Positions 8,798 through 37,253 of a stretch of 64,000 nt of DNA are shown in pieces (within the stretch, counting starts at the first letter, position 1; each line of letters opens with the position of its first letter). Location of the stretch: positions 32,001 through 96,000 of IMG/VR virus record IMGVR_UViG_3300026549_000895; one strand, written 5' to 3'. The DNA is from a virus (lineage: Duplodnaviria; Caudoviricetes). The notes beneath the pieces are model-generated. The model searched no databases. It was given only the letters and a program-made list of their open reading frames with translations, and was not told where the DNA came from. Made by a program: the position numbers and the translations under genes.

Positions 8798-9965
8798 CAG
8801 TATGTTCACGTGAATTGCAAGTTCACGCAGTTCTCTTATGAACTTCTTCGGCTTTCGCCGAATGCTCAGACTATATCTTTCAATGCTTGTTATCTCAACA
8901 ATCATTGACATTTCGTTTCGATTTAAATAGGAATTACATGGTAATTGCCCAACACCTATACCACATAAGCTTTGGCTCTACTCTACTCCATTTATATTTT
9001 TCCAAATACAATCAGTTTCGATAGTCGTTGAACGCGTATCTATGGTCTTTTATAAATTTAATTCTGTCAACGAATATATCGGGTATATCCAATTGACAAC
9101 AAATTTCTTCAGATGTTTTATTTTTATCAATCAAATCAAGTATTTTTGGAGTATATTTCCAATAATCAATATCTGATTCTCTGATAATATACATTGATGA
9201 TATTTGCTCCCATTTATGTCGCTTTTTAATATCATATACCGTCGTAGGTGTAACTCCTGTAAAGAAAGCTATATTGCCCAAAGTCAAACCCTGTTCAAGT
9301 AATTCACAAACGTGTTTTATTTGAGAATAACTATACTTATTAGCAGGATTATCAGTTCCATATCTTGGCTTACACAGACCTGTTTTCCAAGCATGCTCAA
9401 TATTTTCTTTATGAGTAACCCACTCGAGGTTCGATACATCATTATCGGTTTTATCACCGTTTTTATGATTTACATAATCTCTGGTCAAATCATCATTTGG
9501 TATATAAGCTTTTGCGACAAGTCGATGAACTTGATAGGTTTTTGAAGTCTTTGATATTGGATCATGTAAATCTATCAATAAGTAGCCAGATGGATTTGGA
9601 TATGGTTTGAGAAATCTTTTTGATATTTCACTATATATTCTTCCATCTCGAGTTACTAAGTATGGGTATTTTATACCATCACATTCAATTCTTGCTATCC
9701 TATTATTATTTTCATCATAATATACGATATAACATCACCTTCTTTCTTTCAGTATTTTTAATTCCCGATATTCATAGATACTTCGCTGCGGATTGACCAT
9801 ATATCTCATGACCTTAATTACTATACAATCGGCATTACCCGATTCCGCCATATTCTTGCAAATATGGTTTAGTAGTCAGAGCTCTTAGGCATCCAGATTA
9901 AATCCAGATAGTGATTTCGGCAATCACTCTTCCCCGTCAATTTAGAAACATTTGGCCGCCAGTTG
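8798..9965 (-). ncRNA. group I self-splicing intron with HNH ORF
   Basis: 5' exon ends ...AAUGGU and pairs with intron GCCA (U.G at splice site); Q element AATCCGCAGCGAAG (~9781-9794); R element TCAACGACTA (~9022-9031); S element AAGATATAGTCTG (~8867-8879); terminal G; spliced junction reads TTNG|PNSLG. Confidence 0.88.
9012..9728 (-). CDS. intron-encoded NUMOD4/HNH homing endonuclease
   Basis: VHRLVA...VNHKNGDKTDNDVSNLEWVTHKEN; frame is open 50 codons beyond the track's start (YLVTRDGRIYS...SGYL) to ATC 9728, 6 nt after a GAAGGTGA SD. Confidence 0.85.
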   Translation of the reverse strand: MVYYDENNNRIARIECDGIKYPYLVTRDGRIYSEISKRFLKPYPNPSGYLLIDLHDPISKTSKTYQVHRLVAKAYIPNDDLTRDYVNHKNGDKTDNDVSNLEWVTHKENIEHAWKTGLCKPRYGTDNPANKYSYSQIKHVCELLEQGLTLGNIAFFTGVTPTTVYDIKKRHKWEQISSMYIIRESDIDYWKYTPKILDLIDKNKTSEEICCQLDIPDIFVDRIKFIKDHRYAFNDYRN

Positions 9966-31524: not shown

Positions 31525-33237
31525 ATGAGTTATAAAAATAAATTTTATCTGGAAGCTGAGTTAGAGGATGACGATACTGAGCTTGAAGAAGATGAAGATA
31601 TCGAGAAAGGACTCGATGAAGATGATGACGACAATTATGATGACGAGAATGGCTATGATGCTGATGGTGATGACGATGAGTCTGAAAATGACGAATTTGA
31701 TATTGAAGATCCGGACGAAGAAGATGAACCTCGTCCGATGACATATGATGATCTCGATGAATATGATGATACATCTGAAGATGAAGAGGATGATATGTCA
31801 GATTTCGGATCTGATGATTCTGATATCAACAATGACTATGATCCGAAAGATGCTGATGCATTGAACAAACTCATATCGTCAGAGGCTTCTGCAGTCCAGG
31901 AGTATCTTGATGCTAATATGGAAACATCAAATGATAATCTTCGTAGGTTATATGTTGATATTGCCAATGAGGAAAGATTCCATATCGAGCAATTAATGTA
32001 TGCTAAGGCTAAACTCACTGGCGAGAAGTATGAACCATCTGATCCTAAGGTTAAACGTGAATACGAGGAACTCTGTAATTCAGGAATGGATGAAGAATCC
32101 GCAATGTCTACGGCATGTGATAAATGTGCAATATCCAATGACAAGTATTATACAAATGATTCTATCAATGACATCATCGATGACATTGACGATTTCACAG
32201 AATCATTTGTTGAATCAGTTGCCAATAACCTCACTCTTGCATCATTGAATGATACTCAGGAAGTATATATGGAATACGCTGATATGTTCTATATGGAAGG
32301 TATACAGAATGCGACTGATGAGTCTGTCAAGAATAGCAACAAAGTTCATCCTATCAGATTCATCATTAAGACATTTACGGGTATAATCAAATTCATTCGT
32401 AAGATAGTTACTCGTATTAGAGAATTCCTCAGAAAAGTTCATATTAAAGATATGAACAAAATAAACTGGATAAAGAAGCATGGTATAAAGGATCTATTCA
32501 AAGAAGGTATCTGGTTATATACATGGAGTGATAAAGGTGATCATGGTGAAAACGTAAGAGCTTTGTATCAGTATCTTGATTTGTTTGACAGAGTAATGGC
32601 TACTATTCAGAATTCTATGCATGACAAGAAAGAAGCACTTCCTGTTACACAAACAAGAGTCAATGCAAAGGTTCCTAATCCAATAAAATTCAAGAACATT
32701 GAACATGGTGTCAGAATACTAAGAAATGTTATTTTCTCAAAAGAGAAGGTGCTAATCACTGAGAATAATGAACAGGATCTCGAGAAAATATTCTTTGGTA
32801 TAACCGATAATGGAACATCTGGTCCTTCATGGAATATTTACAATTTCCTTGATATACTTTCAAATGGTTTTGAAAGTCTGAGTAAAGATTGTGAACAGTT
32901 GCTTCAGGATCTCCAGGATCTCGAAGGAAACTATGACAGCGTATACTCAAAGAACCCGAAGCTGTATAATCTGTTGATATCTTCAACAAAGGGATTATCA
33001 AAAGAATTTGGTAAGTTCTCCAAAATCATTACTCATGATACAACAACTATCATGCAGCTCAACTCCGGTTTGTATGAGCTCATGAAAGAATATGATGAAT
33101 CCAAGAAATACAACAAAGGAGAATCCGAAGAAGCTCAGGAAGATATTGCAAATAACAAGTTCCAGAAAAAGAAAACTTCCGAAGATCTCAAGAGATATTA
33201 TCCTGGGATTGATGAAAATCGTGAACCTGGTGAATGA
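31525..33237 (+). CDS. putative internal head protein with acidic tract and ferritin-like domain
   Basis: D/E-rich N-terminus; LISSEASAVQEY...DIANEERFHIEQL (ExxH diiron-type); FYME-G followed by amphipathic helix. Confidence 0.55.
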   Translation: MSYKNKFYLEAELEDDDTELEEDEDIEKGLDEDDDDNYDDENGYDADGDDDESENDEFDIEDPDEEDEPRPMTYDDLDEYDDTSEDEEDDMSDFGSDDSDINNDYDPKDADALNKLISSEASAVQEYLDANMETSNDNLRRLYVDIANEERFHIEQLMYAKAKLTGEKYEPSDPKVKREYEELCNSGMDEESAMSTACDKCAISNDKYYTNDSINDIIDDIDDFTESFVESVANNLTLASLNDTQEVYMEYADMFYMEGIQNATDESVKNSNKVHPIRFIIKTFTGIIKFIRKIVTRIREFLRKVHIKDMNKINWIKKHGIKDLFKEGIWLYTWSDKGDHGENVRALYQYLDLFDRVMATIQNSMHDKKEALPVTQTRVNAKVPNPIKFKNIEHGVRILRNVIFSKEKVLITENNEQDLEKIFFGITDNGTSGPSWNIYNFLDILSNGFESLSKDCEQLLQDLQDLEGNYDSVYSKNPKLYNLLISSTKGLSKEFGKFSKIITHDTTTIMQLNSGLYELMKEYDESKKYNKGESEEAQEDIANNKFQKKKTSEDLKRYYPGIDENREPGE

Positions 33238-33242
33238 TATAA

Positions 33243-33274
33243 ATCCCCCGGGAAACCGGGGGAATATCTTTTTT
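33243..33274 (+). terminator. intrinsic terminator
   Basis: TCCCCCGG-GAAA-CCGGGGGA then TCTTTTTT. Confidence 0.75.
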
Positions 33275-33276
33275 GT

Positions 33277-33297
33277 ATTTATATACTTATTATGAGA
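33277..33297 (+). promoter_or_regulatory. candidate early promoter
   Basis: ATTTATATACTTATTATGAGA followed by ACGAGA..TCTCGT hairpin. Confidence 0.45.
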
Positions 33298-33345
33298 AAC
33301 GAGAATATCATATCTCGTAATATATTAAAAGGATAGGTGATCTTA

Positions 33346-33570
33346 ATGAAAATGTATATTGATAATGGTGCTAATGCACTGACCCAAGGAAGACATGCTT
33401 TGACTCCTGCTGATACTCATGGAGCATTGTCATTCACTACGATAATGAATGAAATTGTGAGTGGTGAATTCCAGTGTGGTTCTAAACAACCATTCCCAAT
33501 AGTTTTCGAAAATGATAAACTTCCATGGGGTGAAAAGACTGAATCCCCGTGGGATAAGATTGAATATTAA
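33346..33570 (+). CDS. small hypothetical protein
   Basis: AGGTGA SD; 74 aa. Confidence 0.55.
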   Translation: MKMYIDNGANALTQGRHALTPADTHGALSFTTIMNEIVSGEFQCGSKQPFPIVFENDKLPWGEKTESPWDKIEY

Positions 33571-33595
33571 TGATTAATATGAAAGGAGAATCAAA

Positions 33596-36500
33596 ATGTC
33601 TGTAACAAAAGAACAACTTGATGAATATCTAAAAGCTTACCAAGCAGGTAAACCTCTTATAGATGACGAAGAAGTTTGGTGTACAATACATTATCGAGAT
33701 ATACACAATGATATGTATGAAGTATCCAATTATGGCAGAATTCGTAGAAAAGATACTTTAAAACTAATGTGTCCGAATGTCCGAGGAAATGGATATGTAT
33801 ATGTTAGATTAAGTCTAAATGAATGTGGTAAAAGTAGAATATTCACAATACATAGATTAGTAGCATTTCATTTCTGTGAAGGATATTGTGAAAAAACAAC
33901 AAATATTGTTAATCACAAAGATGGAAATAAATTGAATAATTTTTATGTAAATTTGGAATGGTGTACGCAAAAGCACAATAGTCAACATGCTGTTGATACA
34001 GGACTTCGTGAAATACGATATGGTGATGATAGCAATAGGCATTTTGTTTCATCTGTGTTGGTAGAACGAATATGTCAGATGTTGATTGAATATGATGGCT
34101 CTATAAAACCGATATTAACCATACTAAAAACCGAAGGAATTTATTGTACTTTTGGCATCATTGAAAGCATCAAGCAAAAAGAAACATGGATTCATATTTC
34201 TGATAAATATTTTAATAAAGGATATTTCGATGAGTTGAAAAACAATGATATTAGAACAATATGCGAAAATATTAAAAAATATAATGGCAATAGAAAAAAT
34301 ATCATGGAACATACAAAGCTCAAATCGGTTAAATTAAATAAAAAGATGCTGGATAATATTATTGAGAAACGGCTTTACAAGAAGATTTCTGACGAATATT
34401 TCGACAAAGATGCATATCTTACAAAGAAATTCTTTTCGGAAAATGATGTTAGGCGTATATGTGAATTATTAGTAAAATACAAAGGAGATGTAAAAATGGT
34501 TTTTAATAACTTAAAAGATTCGATTCCGAATGCAACAATAGACCGAATATCCGATATTAAGCATAAGGGATCATACGAAAGCATTTCTAATGAATATTTT
34601 GAACGAGGAGAGTTCAACCAAATATGTACTGAAGATCTCGATTTTATTAGAGAACTTTTAATGACAAAAACAATCTCTTATTCGCCGTTAAAATTATATG
34701 AAATATTGAATCATGAAAAATATCCAAGATTAACAATCAGCGTCATCGGAATGATTAGCAGATGTTCCCATGATGTGTATAATCAGTCAAACAAGATGCA
34801 AATCGAAAAATTCATTAAAAATAAAGAAAATGGAGTAACCGTTCCTATATCAAAAGAAACGTTATCTAAATTAATAGCTTCATATTCATCGGGTTTTAGT
34901 GATATAACCGATACGGGATATGACGCACTTCTTGAAGAATATCTGAAAAAACATGGAGAATCTCTCAGGCCGTTCTTGAGACAATCTCAGACTGAATCCA
35001 TTGCAGATATTGTCTCAACGCTCCCAAAAGTATATGGTATTAGCGTTCCTATGAGGCAAGGTCAAGCAACATATGAGGAATGGCGACACAAACATGAATT
35101 CAAATCAGCCATAAAAGTTATACAACCAAAATTTGATGGTTGTTCTGTTGCATATGATTTGAAAGCAAAGAGATTCTTTACAAGAGGAGATACTGATAAT
35201 GGAGAATCCGTTGATGTTACTGATTTATTTTCTAAACATGATTTGAATGAAAAGAATCTGAATGAATTTGATGCCATAAAGTTTGAAGCTATTCTTTCAA
35301 GGCAAGTTTATAATGAAGCATTTTCAGATTTATATAAACGACCAAGAGATGTAGTAGCGGCTGTTATTCATTCCAGAGATAAAGAGTTGGCTAAATATAT
35401 CACTTTGATTCCATTAAGAAAGATAAAAGATAAGAAATTATACTTATCCGATACTTTACAAGAGTTATCTCTGACTTTCCAAACTCTTAATCAGATAGAA
35501 GAATTTGATACTATTCAAAATTTCATTGATGAAATATTATCAGCTAATGCAACTCGTTGTTTTCAATATCAAACATTTGAATGCGATGGAGTTGTACTAT
35601 CCAATGTTAATAGTTCCAATGAAGTATTGATAGAAGAGATAGCTATAAAGATTCTGAATTTACAGAAGAAAACCAAATTGAAGAAAGTTATTTTCTCAAT
35701 GGGAAAATCTGGAAGGGTAACTCCTGTTGCTGAAGTTGAACCTGTTAAATTCGATGCAGTCACAGTTTCAAATATCTCATTGGAGAATCTGAATAGAATG
35801 ACTGAACTTAGACTAAGAGACGGAGACACTGTGAATATTATGTATAACATCAGACCTTATCTTTTATCATCTGACCATGATGGTGGCCATGAAATTCCGA
35901 TACCTGACAGATGTCCGATATGTGGTTATAAATTAACACGACTTGGACCAGAGCTCGTAGGATGTGAGAATCCGAATTGTAGAGGAAATGAAATAGGTTC
36001 AATAGTCAGATATTGTCAGAACATGAAAATGTATGGAATATCTACATCGACGGTTGAAACTCTATATGACGCTGGACTTATCAAATCAATATCTGATTTA
36101 TATCATCTGAAAGCAGAAGACATATCCAAACTCGATAGATTCGGTAATATCTCTGCTGCAAATATTGTCAGGTCAATAAGAAAAGCATCTACTAATGTGA
36201 ATCCGTTAAGATGGTTATCATCATTACCCTGTAGAAACATTGGTTTGAAAACATGGATGCTAATTCAGAAAGGTGCTTTCGAAGATGATAATCTGAGACT
36301 TGGTAATATTCTGAAAGACGTGTGTAAACAAGAAACTCCTGATATGTTCATAGAAGAACTTTGTAAGCCAGTATTTGGTGTTGATGATTTAACACTCAAT
36401 GCAATCAGAGTTGGAGTTACGTATGCTTGGAAAGATATTCGAGAGATGATTCAATACATTACATTCACAGCATTGACTCCAATGAAGCATTCAAAGGGAA

Positions 36501-36700
36501 CTGTTGTATTATCAGGAACTCGTGACAGACTACTGATAGAGTATCTTGAATCCGCTGGATATGAAGTATCAGATTCATTTAAATCCGATGCTAAATATGT
36601 TATCGTTCCAAACTTAAATTTCTCATCTTCAAAAACTAAGAAAGCACGTGAGAAAGGTATACCGGTTATAAATGCTGAATCAGCTCTTAAACTTTCTTAA
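33596..36700 (+). CDS. ligA: NAD-dependent DNA ligase with in-frame HNH endonuclease insertion
   Basis: QPKFDGCS (KxDG), TRGD, FEA, CDGVV, IAIK, G.SGRVTPV, CPIC..C.NPNC Zn finger, HhH repeats, C-terminal BRCT. Confidence 0.9.
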   Translation: MSVTKEQLDEYLKAYQAGKPLIDDEEVWCTIHYRDIHNDMYEVSNYGRIRRKDTLKLMCPNVRGNGYVYVRLSLNECGKSRIFTIHRLVAFHFCEGYCEKTTNIVNHKDGNKLNNFYVNLEWCTQKHNSQHAVDTGLREIRYGDDSNRHFVSSVLVERICQMLIEYDGSIKPILTILKTEGIYCTFGIIESIKQKETWIHISDKYFNKGYFDELKNNDIRTICENIKKYNGNRKNIMEHTKLKSVKLNKKMLDNIIEKRLYKKISDEYFDKDAYLTKKFFSENDVRRICELLVKYKGDVKMVFNNLKDSIPNATIDRISDIKHKGSYESISNEYFERGEFNQICTEDLDFIRELLMTKTISYSPLKLYEILNHEKYPRLTISVIGMISRCSHDVYNQSNKMQIEKFIKNKENGVTVPISKETLSKLIASYSSGFSDITDTGYDALLEEYLKKHGESLRPFLRQSQTESIADIVSTLPKVYGISVPMRQGQATYEEWRHKHEFKSAIKVIQPKFDGCSVAYDLKAKRFFTRGDTDNGESVDVTDLFSKHDLNEKNLNEFDAIKFEAILSRQVYNEAFSDLYKRPRDVVAAVIHSRDKELAKYITLIPLRKIKDKKLYLSDTLQELSLTFQTLNQIEEFDTIQNFIDEILSANATRCFQYQTFECDGVVLSNVNSSNEVLIEEIAIKILNLQKKTKLKKVIFSMGKSGRVTPVAEVEPVKFDAVTVSNISLENLNRMTELRLRDGDTVNIMYNIRPYLLSSDHDGGHEIPIPDRCPICGYKLTRLGPELVGCENPNCRGNEIGSIVRYCQNMKMYGISTSTVETLYDAGLIKSISDLYHLKAEDISKLDRFGNISAANIVRSIRKASTNVNPLRWLSSLPCRNIGLKTWMLIQKGAFEDDNLRLGNILKDVCKQETPDMFIEELCKPVFGVDDLTLNAIRVGVTYAWKDIREMIQYITFTALTPMKHSKGTVVLSGTRDRLLIEYLESAGYEVSDSFKSDAKYVIVPNLNFSSSKTKKAREKGIPVINAESALKLS
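33674..34918 (+). mobile_element. NUMOD4-HNH homing endonuclease inserted in-frame in ligA
   Basis: YEVSNYGRIR...IHRLVA...VNHKDGNKLNN..NLEWCT..N; three to four helical repeats (ICE.L.KY.G...ISDKYF); lies between ligase DDEE and YDAL. Confidence 0.8.
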
Positions 36701-36713
36701 AGTTATTTTACGA

Positions 36714-36737
36714 TGTACCCGGAAACCTCCGGGTACA
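36714..36737 (+). terminator. hairpin / terminator
   Basis: TGTACCCGGA-AACC-TCCGGGTACA. Confidence 0.6.
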
Positions 36738-36764
36738 CGTTTATTTCATGAAAGGAGAAAATTC

Positions 36765-37253
36765 ATGATTGTAATGTCAGGTAATGTTTTGGAGACTCCG
36801 ATTGAAATTATAGCTCATCAGGTTAATTGCCAAGGAGTCATGGGAGCGGGTCTTGCAAAACAAATAAAAGATAAATATCCGAAGGTATATACATGGTATC
36901 GAACCAAATGTCATAAACACTTGTTCGGACACAAAACTCTTGGAACTGGTCAAATAGTACCAACTGATGATGGGCATACTTTTTTCAATATATTCGCCCA
37001 AGATGGATATGGAACAACCATAAGACAAACTGATTACAACGCTTTCAAATCGGCATTCAAAGATGCAATTGATACATACAGATTCTTCGCAAATGATGCT
37101 TTATCAAATTTGGAAATTGCAATTCCATATAAAATTGGATGTGGATTAGCCGGAGGAGATTGGAAAGTCATACGTGCAATTTTAGGACAAATTGAAAAGG
37201 AATGTAATGTAACATTTTATATTTATAAATTAAGGAGTGATAAATATGAATAA
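36765..37253 (+). CDS. macrodomain (ADP-ribose processing) protein
   Basis: IIAHQVNCQGVMGAGLAKQI and PYKIGCGLAGGDW; start at ATG 36765 after GAAAGGAG. Confidence 0.88.
   Translation: MIVMSGNVLETPIEIIAHQVNCQGVMGAGLAKQIKDKYPKVYTWYRTKCHKHLFGHKTLGTGQIVPTDDGHTFFNIFAQDGYGTTIRQTDYNAFKSAFKDAIDTYRFFANDALSNLEIAIPYKIGCGLAGGDWKVIRAILGQIEKECNVTFYIYKLRSDKYE

Follow-up and report, generated by a model that had tools for sequence, protein, structure and literature searches.

A homing endonuclease gene within a jumbo-phage NAD+-dependent DNA ligase gene appears to bring its own replacement for the ligase N-terminus

Within a 64,000-nucleotide stretch of phage DNA (the window; bases 32001-96000 of a 239,830-bp IMG/VR virus record that is ~89% complete), an open reading frame (ORF) at 33596-36700 on the plus strand stays open over 1034 codons and contains four parts in order: the native start of a ligase gene (26 codons), an endonuclease of the NUMOD4/HNH type that resembles I-HmuI, the 26 ligase codons once more in diverged form, and a complete NAD+ ligase. 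This arrangement is likely to represent a splicing-free homing element of the I-HmuI type that carries foreign ligase codons 1-26, with the ligase translated as the C-terminal part of a fusion. DNA of the ~240-kb record is present in many bovine-gut metagenomes from 10 studies. The parts of the ORF and the basis for each (in brackets) are as follows, where HEG stands for homing endonuclease gene and AF2 for AlphaFold2:

33584..33588, plus strand: Shine-Dalgarno (SD) sequence AGGAG, 7 nt upstream of the single start codon that serves the entire fusion (sequence)
33596..33673, plus strand: native ligase 5' remnant, codons 1-26, MSVTKEQLDEYLKAYQAGKPLIDDEE, now the start of endonuclease translation (hidden Markov model positions 1-26 of HEG-less ligases, E 3.6e-8)
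33674..34840, plus strand: putative HNH homing endonuclease body, residues 27-415, with no start or stop codon of its own (Pfam, I-HmuI match)
33713-33814, plus strand: NUMOD4 (Pfam)
33851-33982, plus strand: HNH (Pfam)
3' of HNH within the endonuclease body, plus strand: ~270 residues of helical modules
34601..34840, plus strand: last endonuclease module, residues 336-415 (alignment A2, deletion junctions, AF2)
34841..34918, plus strand: replacement copy of ligase codons 1-26, VPISKETLSKLIASYSSGFSDITDTG, with no start codon (profile homology, invariant residues, covariation with HEG)
34919..36700, plus strand: ligase part 3' of the replacement copy (PHROG 3869, PDB LigA matches, invariant K512/D514/G515)
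33660..34976, plus strand: laterally moving unit, approximate extent (high-identity tract between HEG-bearing, or HEG+, alleles of different ligase lineages)

The original prediction had claimed that an HNH-type insert at 33674-34918 splits a ligase motif in frame. It does so exactly at DEE/YD, where the slash marks the insertion point: the insert of 415 codons (1245 nt) interrupts the consensus N-terminus of ~100 HEG-less relatives, M.ITKEELD.YI.AY..G.PLISDEE/YD.LLEEYL. The remnant upstream varies with the host lineage and not with the HEG, and its DNA is 96% identical, up to ~codon 24, to that of the HEG-less locus L005. Misassembly, which had been named as a possible refutation, is excluded, because the same architecture is found in independent assemblies (L003, L006 and L015) and both junctions are bridged by contigs of other runs.

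The ligase part is readily recognized. PHROG 3869 (NAD-dependent DNA ligase) spans residues 430-1031 (E 1e-80), Pfam places the LigA OB domain at residues 692-748 as well as HHH_5 and BRCT in this part, and PDB LigA chains match residues 463-960 of the AF2 model with Z of 18-19. The KxDG sequence of the ligase, K512-F-D514-G515, is invariant, and the domains follow the LigA order Ia - adenylation (KxDG) - OB - Zn - HhH - BRCT. By sequence, the C-terminal part is a NAD+-dependent DNA ligase (LigA) of predicted activity. A search of the 240-kb record found no second DNA ligase.

The endonuclease part has matches to NUMOD4 (residues 40-73, 27.4 bits) and HNH_3 (residues 86-129, 27.8 bits), both over the Pfam cut-off. 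Its residues 38-138 match I-HmuI (PDB 1U3E, E 9e-18), and this alignment begins so near the I-HmuI N-terminus that it leaves no room for a leader or start codon of the endonuclease's own. The motif HR..NH.DG.K.NN..NLEW...N is intact in all full-length alleles (10 of 10). In the full-length AF2 model, confidence scores (pLDDT) for the HNH region are 32-47, too low for a structural conclusion on the active site. The insert is, on our reading, a mobile HNH homing endonuclease (I-HmuI-like, NUMOD4 plus HNH_3) that is predicted to cleave. The search for close relatives of the HEG returned no free-standing one. Elsewhere in the window, an ORF at 9012-9578 on the minus strand (TTG start, 240-residue open frame) encodes a second HNH endonuclease-like protein, with HNH_3 at E 2.4e-8 and a weak HTH_7 match. 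Its identity with the nuclease part of the ligase element is 33%, and it looks free-standing between genes.

The last ~80 residues of the endonuclease (~336-415) form a module that is common to all three element types described below and is kept by every nuclease-less derivative. AF2 folds residues 332-471 as a single compact body (pTM 0.80, pLDDT >90 over most of it), which hints that the last module packs on the helix of the replacement copy. For this 140-residue cassette model, no clear fold match was found (Foldseek E of at least 1.5, best VIA Z 4.7), and its Myb/TRF/Tc3-like three-helix matches (Z 2.6-4.1) are within noise. The module was also considered as a repeat of the earlier helical modules and rejected, as BLASTP found no similarity (E 8.8).

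The central claim of the original prediction, that the HEG carries a replacement of the ligase N-terminus it displaced, held up in several respects. A profile built from distant HEG-less N-termini only finds the fusion protein twice, at residues 1-26 (E 3.6e-8) and at residues 418-535 (E 6.5e-52). The 24 replacement residues alone reach 7.4 bits, a score attained by none of 2000 shuffles and by none of the 365 24-mers of the HEG body. The copy occurs only beside the HEG and tracks it, and the residues expected of domain Ia are kept: S-Y-x-x-G-x-x-D-I-x-D-x-x-Y-D is invariant in the copy in all 15 element-bearing rows of alignment A2, and Y430 ... D439-x-x-Y442-D443 has the same spacing as the native Y15 ... 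D24-x-x-Y-D (the domain Ia pattern). We take the domain Ia residues of E. coli LigA to be Y22, D32, Y35 and D36. The equivalent of His23 is not conserved in this phage ligase family, with or without the HEG. Domain Ia residues are required for the NAD+ reaction (Sriskanda & Shuman 2002, reference 15 of PMC4797296). Of 26 residues, native and replacement copies have only 7 in common, and 47% of their bases agree; homologous recombination would need more, and so, presumably, would recognition by a sequence-specific enzyme.

Structure prediction points the same way. The whole protein was modelled by AF2 (mean pLDDT 77) from an alignment whose HEG-less rows were trimmed to begin at YD, to favour neither copy. 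Residues 420-431 form a helix, and the helix of the upstream remnant has a pLDDT of ~50. Superposition on E. faecalis LigA (1TAE) aligns model residue 416 to chain residue 4 (Z 14.9). According to this model, domain Ia of the working ligase begins with the replacement copy as its first helix. It may stem from a ligase lineage of the kind of P0097, a HEG-less ligase whose natural N-terminus (residues 1-27, MVTKEQLDQYLKAYSSGSSEISDEAYD) resembles the replacement copy (..ASYSSGFSDISDEAYD).

To place the locus among its relatives, these were gathered from a protein index, and the 121 closest ligases were compared. Megablast of the locus against 50,697 phage records gave no match, tblastn against phage records gave only jumbo-phage ligases of 24-29% identity, and a locus search of viral contigs with ligase confirmed no related locus. 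About 100 of the 121 ligases are HEG-less. A replacement-type N-terminus is present in 16, and in 16 of these 16 it is preceded by the endonuclease or its remnant, with the nuclease intact in 11. Aligning related ligA genes had been proposed as a check, and the comparison of HEG-less relatives with HEG+ alleles supports the claim of a HEG with replacement copy.

The distribution and divergence of the element indicate mobility. Near-identical ligase cores differ in the element (P0009/P0010, P0004/P0008, P0002/P0003, P0063/P0034), and the ligase tree (FastTree, with SH-like supports only) requires at least 9-10 gains or losses. The loci L003 (HEG+) and L004 (HEG-), compared like other HEG+ and HEG- loci by BLAST segments, are syntenic and align to ~codon 24, resuming at the YD codon. 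When the window and L006 are compared with L003, the HEG has a synonymous divergence (dS) of 0.33 and the replacement copy one of 0.42-0.53, as opposed to 1.5-1.6 for the ligase and saturation for the upstream remnant. Protein identities between deep lineages follow the same pattern (HEG 62-66%, copy 65-73%, ligase 44-47%), and nucleotide identity per 20 codons is 82-100% from ~codon 22 to ~460 (33660-34976), then 52-78%. The element is younger than its flanks and is polymorphic for presence or absence at one site among close relatives. Purifying selection acts on both the HEG (ratio of nonsynonymous to synonymous divergence, dN/dS, 0.06-0.26) and the replacement copy (0.03-0.24 in four of five pairs). 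Judging from these comparisons, HEG and replacement copy move together.

Three versions of the element (those of the window, L011 and L007) have the last ~80-residue module in common and nearly the same replacement copy, partly even at the nucleotide level, so that nearly the same copy is found 3' of two different nuclease types. The versions differ in their 5' parts. In the window type, the 26-codon remnant is fused in frame, and the duplicate has 47% nucleotide identity. In L011, a 43-codon remnant is fused in frame, and a diverged 40-codon duplicate has 51% nucleotide identity. In L007, the nuclease part is a different one, led by an AGGAGG and ATG of its own, and the 58-codon duplicate has 68% nucleotide identity. 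At L007 2799-3014 (a type-B element), the native start has become a separate 71-codon ORF (62 ligase codons plus 9 others), whose stop lies 14 nt inside the endonuclease gene and which contains the AGGAGG of the endonuclease. This looks like translational coupling of the native start rather than fusion. L008 has no ligase remnant. In the insertion variants L011, L007 and L008 alike, the 3' fusion to the ligase persists.

The nuclease has been lost from four alleles (P0011, P0035, P0007 and P0079), and all four have an open frame from ATG into the ligase, although the upstream part of P0079, near a contig end, is doubtful. P0011 has its deletion joint at MMSVTKEQLDEY/FERGEF, with 8-nt microhomology, P0035 at MITEQQ/YIEQSQF, and P0007 has a new start at an internal Met directly after the upstream gene. 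These latter three are deletion derivatives in which the frame from an SD-led ATG was kept. Three independent deletions end within a few codons of the start of the last module (L008 2019-2280; L009 3001-3270; L012 3001-3260; window 34601-34840), and no derivative without this module was seen among the element-bearing alleles.

How is the ligase made? Two routes had been left open at the outset, an HNH-ligase fusion and internal re-initiation; the first gained ground and the second lost it, as neither a start nor an SD is conserved at the copy. By contrast, AGGAG or GGAGG stands 4-12 nt before every upstream start in the relatives checked, both HEG+ and HEG- (with a weaker AGGA in L008), and the frame is open from the upstream start into the ligase in every allele, a TGA in L014 excepted. 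No in-frame ATG, GTG or TTG with an SD was found within 30 codons of the replacement copy in 11 loci. Depending on the allele, V, A, S, T, P or I stands where Met1 would be, with no residue conserved, and the first Met 3' of the copy is residue 478, where a start would cost domain Ia. None of the 16 alleles has a start codon on the copy, and no ligase with a replacement-type N-terminus plus its own start was found among the ligases compared. We consider it probable, without being close to certain, that the ligase is translated as one endonuclease-ligase polypeptide from ATG 33596.

It is unlikely that, with the same mobile element, translation of a separate ligase starts internally from a non-canonical codon near 34841-34849 (GTT, ATA) and the read-through product is a by-product. 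The original prediction was accurate in placing a GTT at 34841, 5 nt after GGAG (34832-34835), and the window also has ATA 11 nt after this GGAG; L014, with a nonsense codon upstream and yet a long open ligase frame, would fit such a start as well. However, the GGAG upstream of the copy is not conserved in relatives (it is lost in L009, which has AGA, and absent in L015, L007, L008 and L011), and neither a start-capable codon at a fixed position nor an SD-led one within 30 codons is found in the 11 loci. An internal start would also tolerate frameshifts in decaying endonucleases, and none of the 16 alleles shows one.

Less likely again is cleavage of the translated fusion by a protease into free endonuclease and free ligase. 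Residues 412-419 (KENGVTVP), between the last module and the replacement helix, are predicted to be non-helical, which speaks for such a cut, but no conserved cleavage motif is found at the junction across element types in alignment A2, the compact AF2 body of residues 332-471 argues against a free linker, and the last module is still attached in all nuclease-less derivatives.

A cryptic self-splicing intron or unorthodox intein could in principle remove 33674-34918 and restore DEE-YD, with the internal 26 codons incidental. Excision of exactly 1245 nt would yield a ligase that looks native, and, like an intein, the insert keeps the reading frame. We regard splicing as very improbable, in line with the original prediction that neither intron nor intein is present. 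An Rfam cmscan of 33000-37000 found no group I or II intron at E<=10, and a Pfam scan of the fusion protein found no Hint/intein domain. In all alleles, the insert starts with V/I-W and ends with G/S/T/A, followed by Tyr; these border residues lack the Cys/Ser/Thr and His-Asn of inteins, and the absence of intein nucleophiles makes protein splicing impossible. Metatranscriptome contigs identical to the window come from two runs of one bovine-gut sample, where X2 contigs cross the left (33584-33853) and right (34551-35204) junctions unspliced and no RNA-run contig skips the insert. The depth of the RNA contigs is 1 to 11 between neighbouring genes, and gaps in their cover were not counted as evidence. 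A DNA-run joint of 33636->35332 in X4 was not used, as it has 24 letters on one side and skips 1695 nt, not 1245. Moreover, the whole insert is coding, with the dN/dS of 0.06-0.26 given above, and the duplicated segments are of other lengths elsewhere (58 codons in L007, 40 in L011). The 62-codon remnant of L007 is out of frame, which fits neither an intron nor an intein. Invariant domain Ia residues in the internal copy would be senseless if the copy were discarded.

A stable, domesticated HNH-ligase enzyme that is vertically inherited and not selfish (for example, a nick-and-seal repair or anti-competitor protein) would account for the age of the fusion (present in ligase lineages only 45% identical), the purifying selection on the HEG and the lack of a free-standing close relative, but is hardly credible in view of the patchy presence (near-identical HEG+/HEG- pairs, at least 9 changes on the tree), a HEG dS far below that of the flanks, the viability of nuclease-less derivatives and the ~100 of 121 relatives without the element.

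Several observations weigh against the fusion-making homing element that we favour. Between the window copy and that of its nearest relative, 4 residues differ (TDTG vs SDES), with a dN/dS of 0.94 over few sites. The in-frame deletions run from one motif to another in the same frame (DEY/NEY, 8-nt microhomology), so that the retention of the frame is partly mechanical. In L014 (the contig of P0063), a TGA at 310-320 interrupts the type-B endonuclease where relatives have Arg; the frame after it is open for 897 more codons into the ligase, and there is no SD before the next ATG. This TGA may be an error in a single contig or mark a dying allele; if it is not a sequencing error, the ligase of L014 is started in some other way or is dead. 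The 441-residue N-terminal extension on domain Ia might impair closure over NAD+. The ATA of the window (I418), 11 nt after GGAG, could allow weak non-canonical initiation. Finally, RNA-library contigs may hold DNA and drop rare spliced forms, and their unspliced junctions are therefore weak evidence.

Together, our data suggest a model in which a free-standing endonuclease gene of the HNH type, without intron or intein, homes to the 5' end of the NAD+ ligase gene of jumbo phages, at the SDEE/YD codons. The mobile unit would consist of the endonuclease and foreign, differently spelled ligase codons 1-26. The resident 26 codons would remain upstream and give their ribosome-binding site and ATG to the endonuclease, and the foreign copy would join the rest of the gene, creating a complete ligase frame 3' of the endonuclease. 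Because the foreign copy has no start and the endonuclease no stop, the ligase would be the C-terminal 619 residues of a 1034-residue fusion. With the native half-site displaced by 1.2 kb and the new half-site recoded, the HEG+ allele should be immune to its own enzyme, and HEG-less alleles of co-infecting phages would be cut and converted. The sequence comparisons show the architecture, the mobility, the joint transfer of HEG and copy, the purifying selection and the lack of splicing and internal start signals. We infer the cleavage of the naive allele, the immunity of the recoded allele, and the production and activity of the fusion. The ligase is presumably essential, and the diverged copy would remove the cut site.

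Beyond this model, we tentatively raise the possibility, which we think doubtful, that the only ligase of the phage has become translationally dependent on the endonuclease. A frameshift or nonsense mutation in the endonuclease would then silence the ligase too, the usual decay-and-loss cycle would be blocked, and only in-frame deletions would survive; the retained ~80-residue module would perhaps be a structural part of domain Ia. Such an element would be a natural counterpart of engineered "home-and-rescue" drives, with an addiction step added.

The DNA 3' of the ligase has features of its own. A Macro-domain ORF (36672-37253, plus strand; likely true start ATG 36764; Pfam Macro 21.9 bits, just below the 22-bit cut-off) stands between the ligase and a Metallophos gene. 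Metallophos directly follows the ligase in L003, L004 and L007, and an ORF of 151-159 residues lies between them in L005, L008, L009 and L011. The slot 3' of the ligase is a variable insertion point. A near-perfect palindrome (8 bp), GTACCCGGAAACCTCCGGGTAC, at 36715-36736, 15 nt after the ligase stop, is followed by TGAAAGGAGAA and ATG. The ribosome-site string TGAAAGGAGAA also stands before the ligase start, which explains two sub-threshold Rfam "freshwater-2" matches (33502-33598 and 36696-36767) that share only this site and were rejected.

Elements of this kind are already on record for the 3' ends of genes in fungi and yeasts, which the original prediction did not take into account. In fungal mitochondria, mobile endonuclease ORFs (mORFs) create gene hybrids in atp6, atp9, cox2 and nad3 of Glomus sp. 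(Beaudet et al. 2013, PMC3630166) and in atp6 of Allomyces macrogynus (Paquin, Laforest & Lang 1994, cited in PMC3630166). Some of these insertions keep the phase of the gene. Like the mORFs, the element here is an endonuclease ORF in a coding gene, free of intron and intein; with it comes a diverged version of the gene end that it displaces, foreign in origin and joined in phase to the gene core, and the native end is orphaned. The mORFs differ in being LAGLIDADG or GIY-YIG and mitochondrial and in replacing the 3' end, so that the host protein may terminate ahead of the endonuclease or without regard to it. The ligase element is of the HNH type, resides in a phage and acts at the 5' end, and the host enzyme, which lacks a start codon of its own, is predicted to be read through the endonuclease. 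The WHO elements of Torulaspora and Lachancea yeasts cut FBA1 allele-specifically and replace its 3' end at each integration, with no splicing (Coughlan et al. 2020, eLife, PMC7282813). They resemble the ligase element in homing without splicing into a conserved housekeeping gene and replacing a gene end, and differ in being nuclear, with an intein-derived endonuclease in a separate downstream gene, a replaced 3' end and no fusion with the target. An endonuclease in the host gene, a diverged duplicate end and an orphaned native end are all found here, in three independent versions, and the duplicate is foreign and travels with the endonuclease; a replaced 3' end and a host protein independent of endonuclease translation are not, and the ligase element thus departs from the typical mORF or WHO plan.

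Among phage systems, I-HmuI of Bacillus phage SPO1 (PDB 1U3E) has the same N-terminal DNA-binding part and HNH core and likewise resides in a phage replication gene. It belongs to the nicking enzymes, which are directed at conserved motifs within essential genes. I-HmuI is encoded within a self-splicing group I intron, whereas no intron is detectable here and the duplicate 5' end keeps the gene whole. In Aeromonas phage Aeh1, the free-standing HNH gene mobE reportedly interrupts the essential nrdA (Friedrich et al. 2007 PNAS), which still functions without splicing, as two separately translated polypeptides that reassemble, with nothing duplicated or fused. The ligase element differs in its duplicated 5' end and in the fusion. 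A limited literature search found no published phage example of an endonuclease that carries a replacement gene start. What appears to be new is that the 5' end is replaced, and by a segment without a start codon, so that an important replication enzyme would be expressed only through its parasite, with broad comparative support for the arrangement.

According to the textbook view, homing endonucleases inhabit essential genes only via self-splicing introns or inteins. The 16 related alleles speak for a third route in phages, that of bringing a spare, recoded gene start, and the expression of the host enzyme solely as a fusion to its parasite would be the extreme form of this route. An active fusion would mean that LigA copes with 441 extra N-terminal residues on domain Ia, that the locus offers a natural model for recoded-rescue gene drives, and that a selfish gene may escape mutational decay in a new way. 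For annotation, the comparison suggests that phage "ligases" of 1000 residues and short orphan N-terminal ORFs in metagenomes are homing scars, not new domain architectures.

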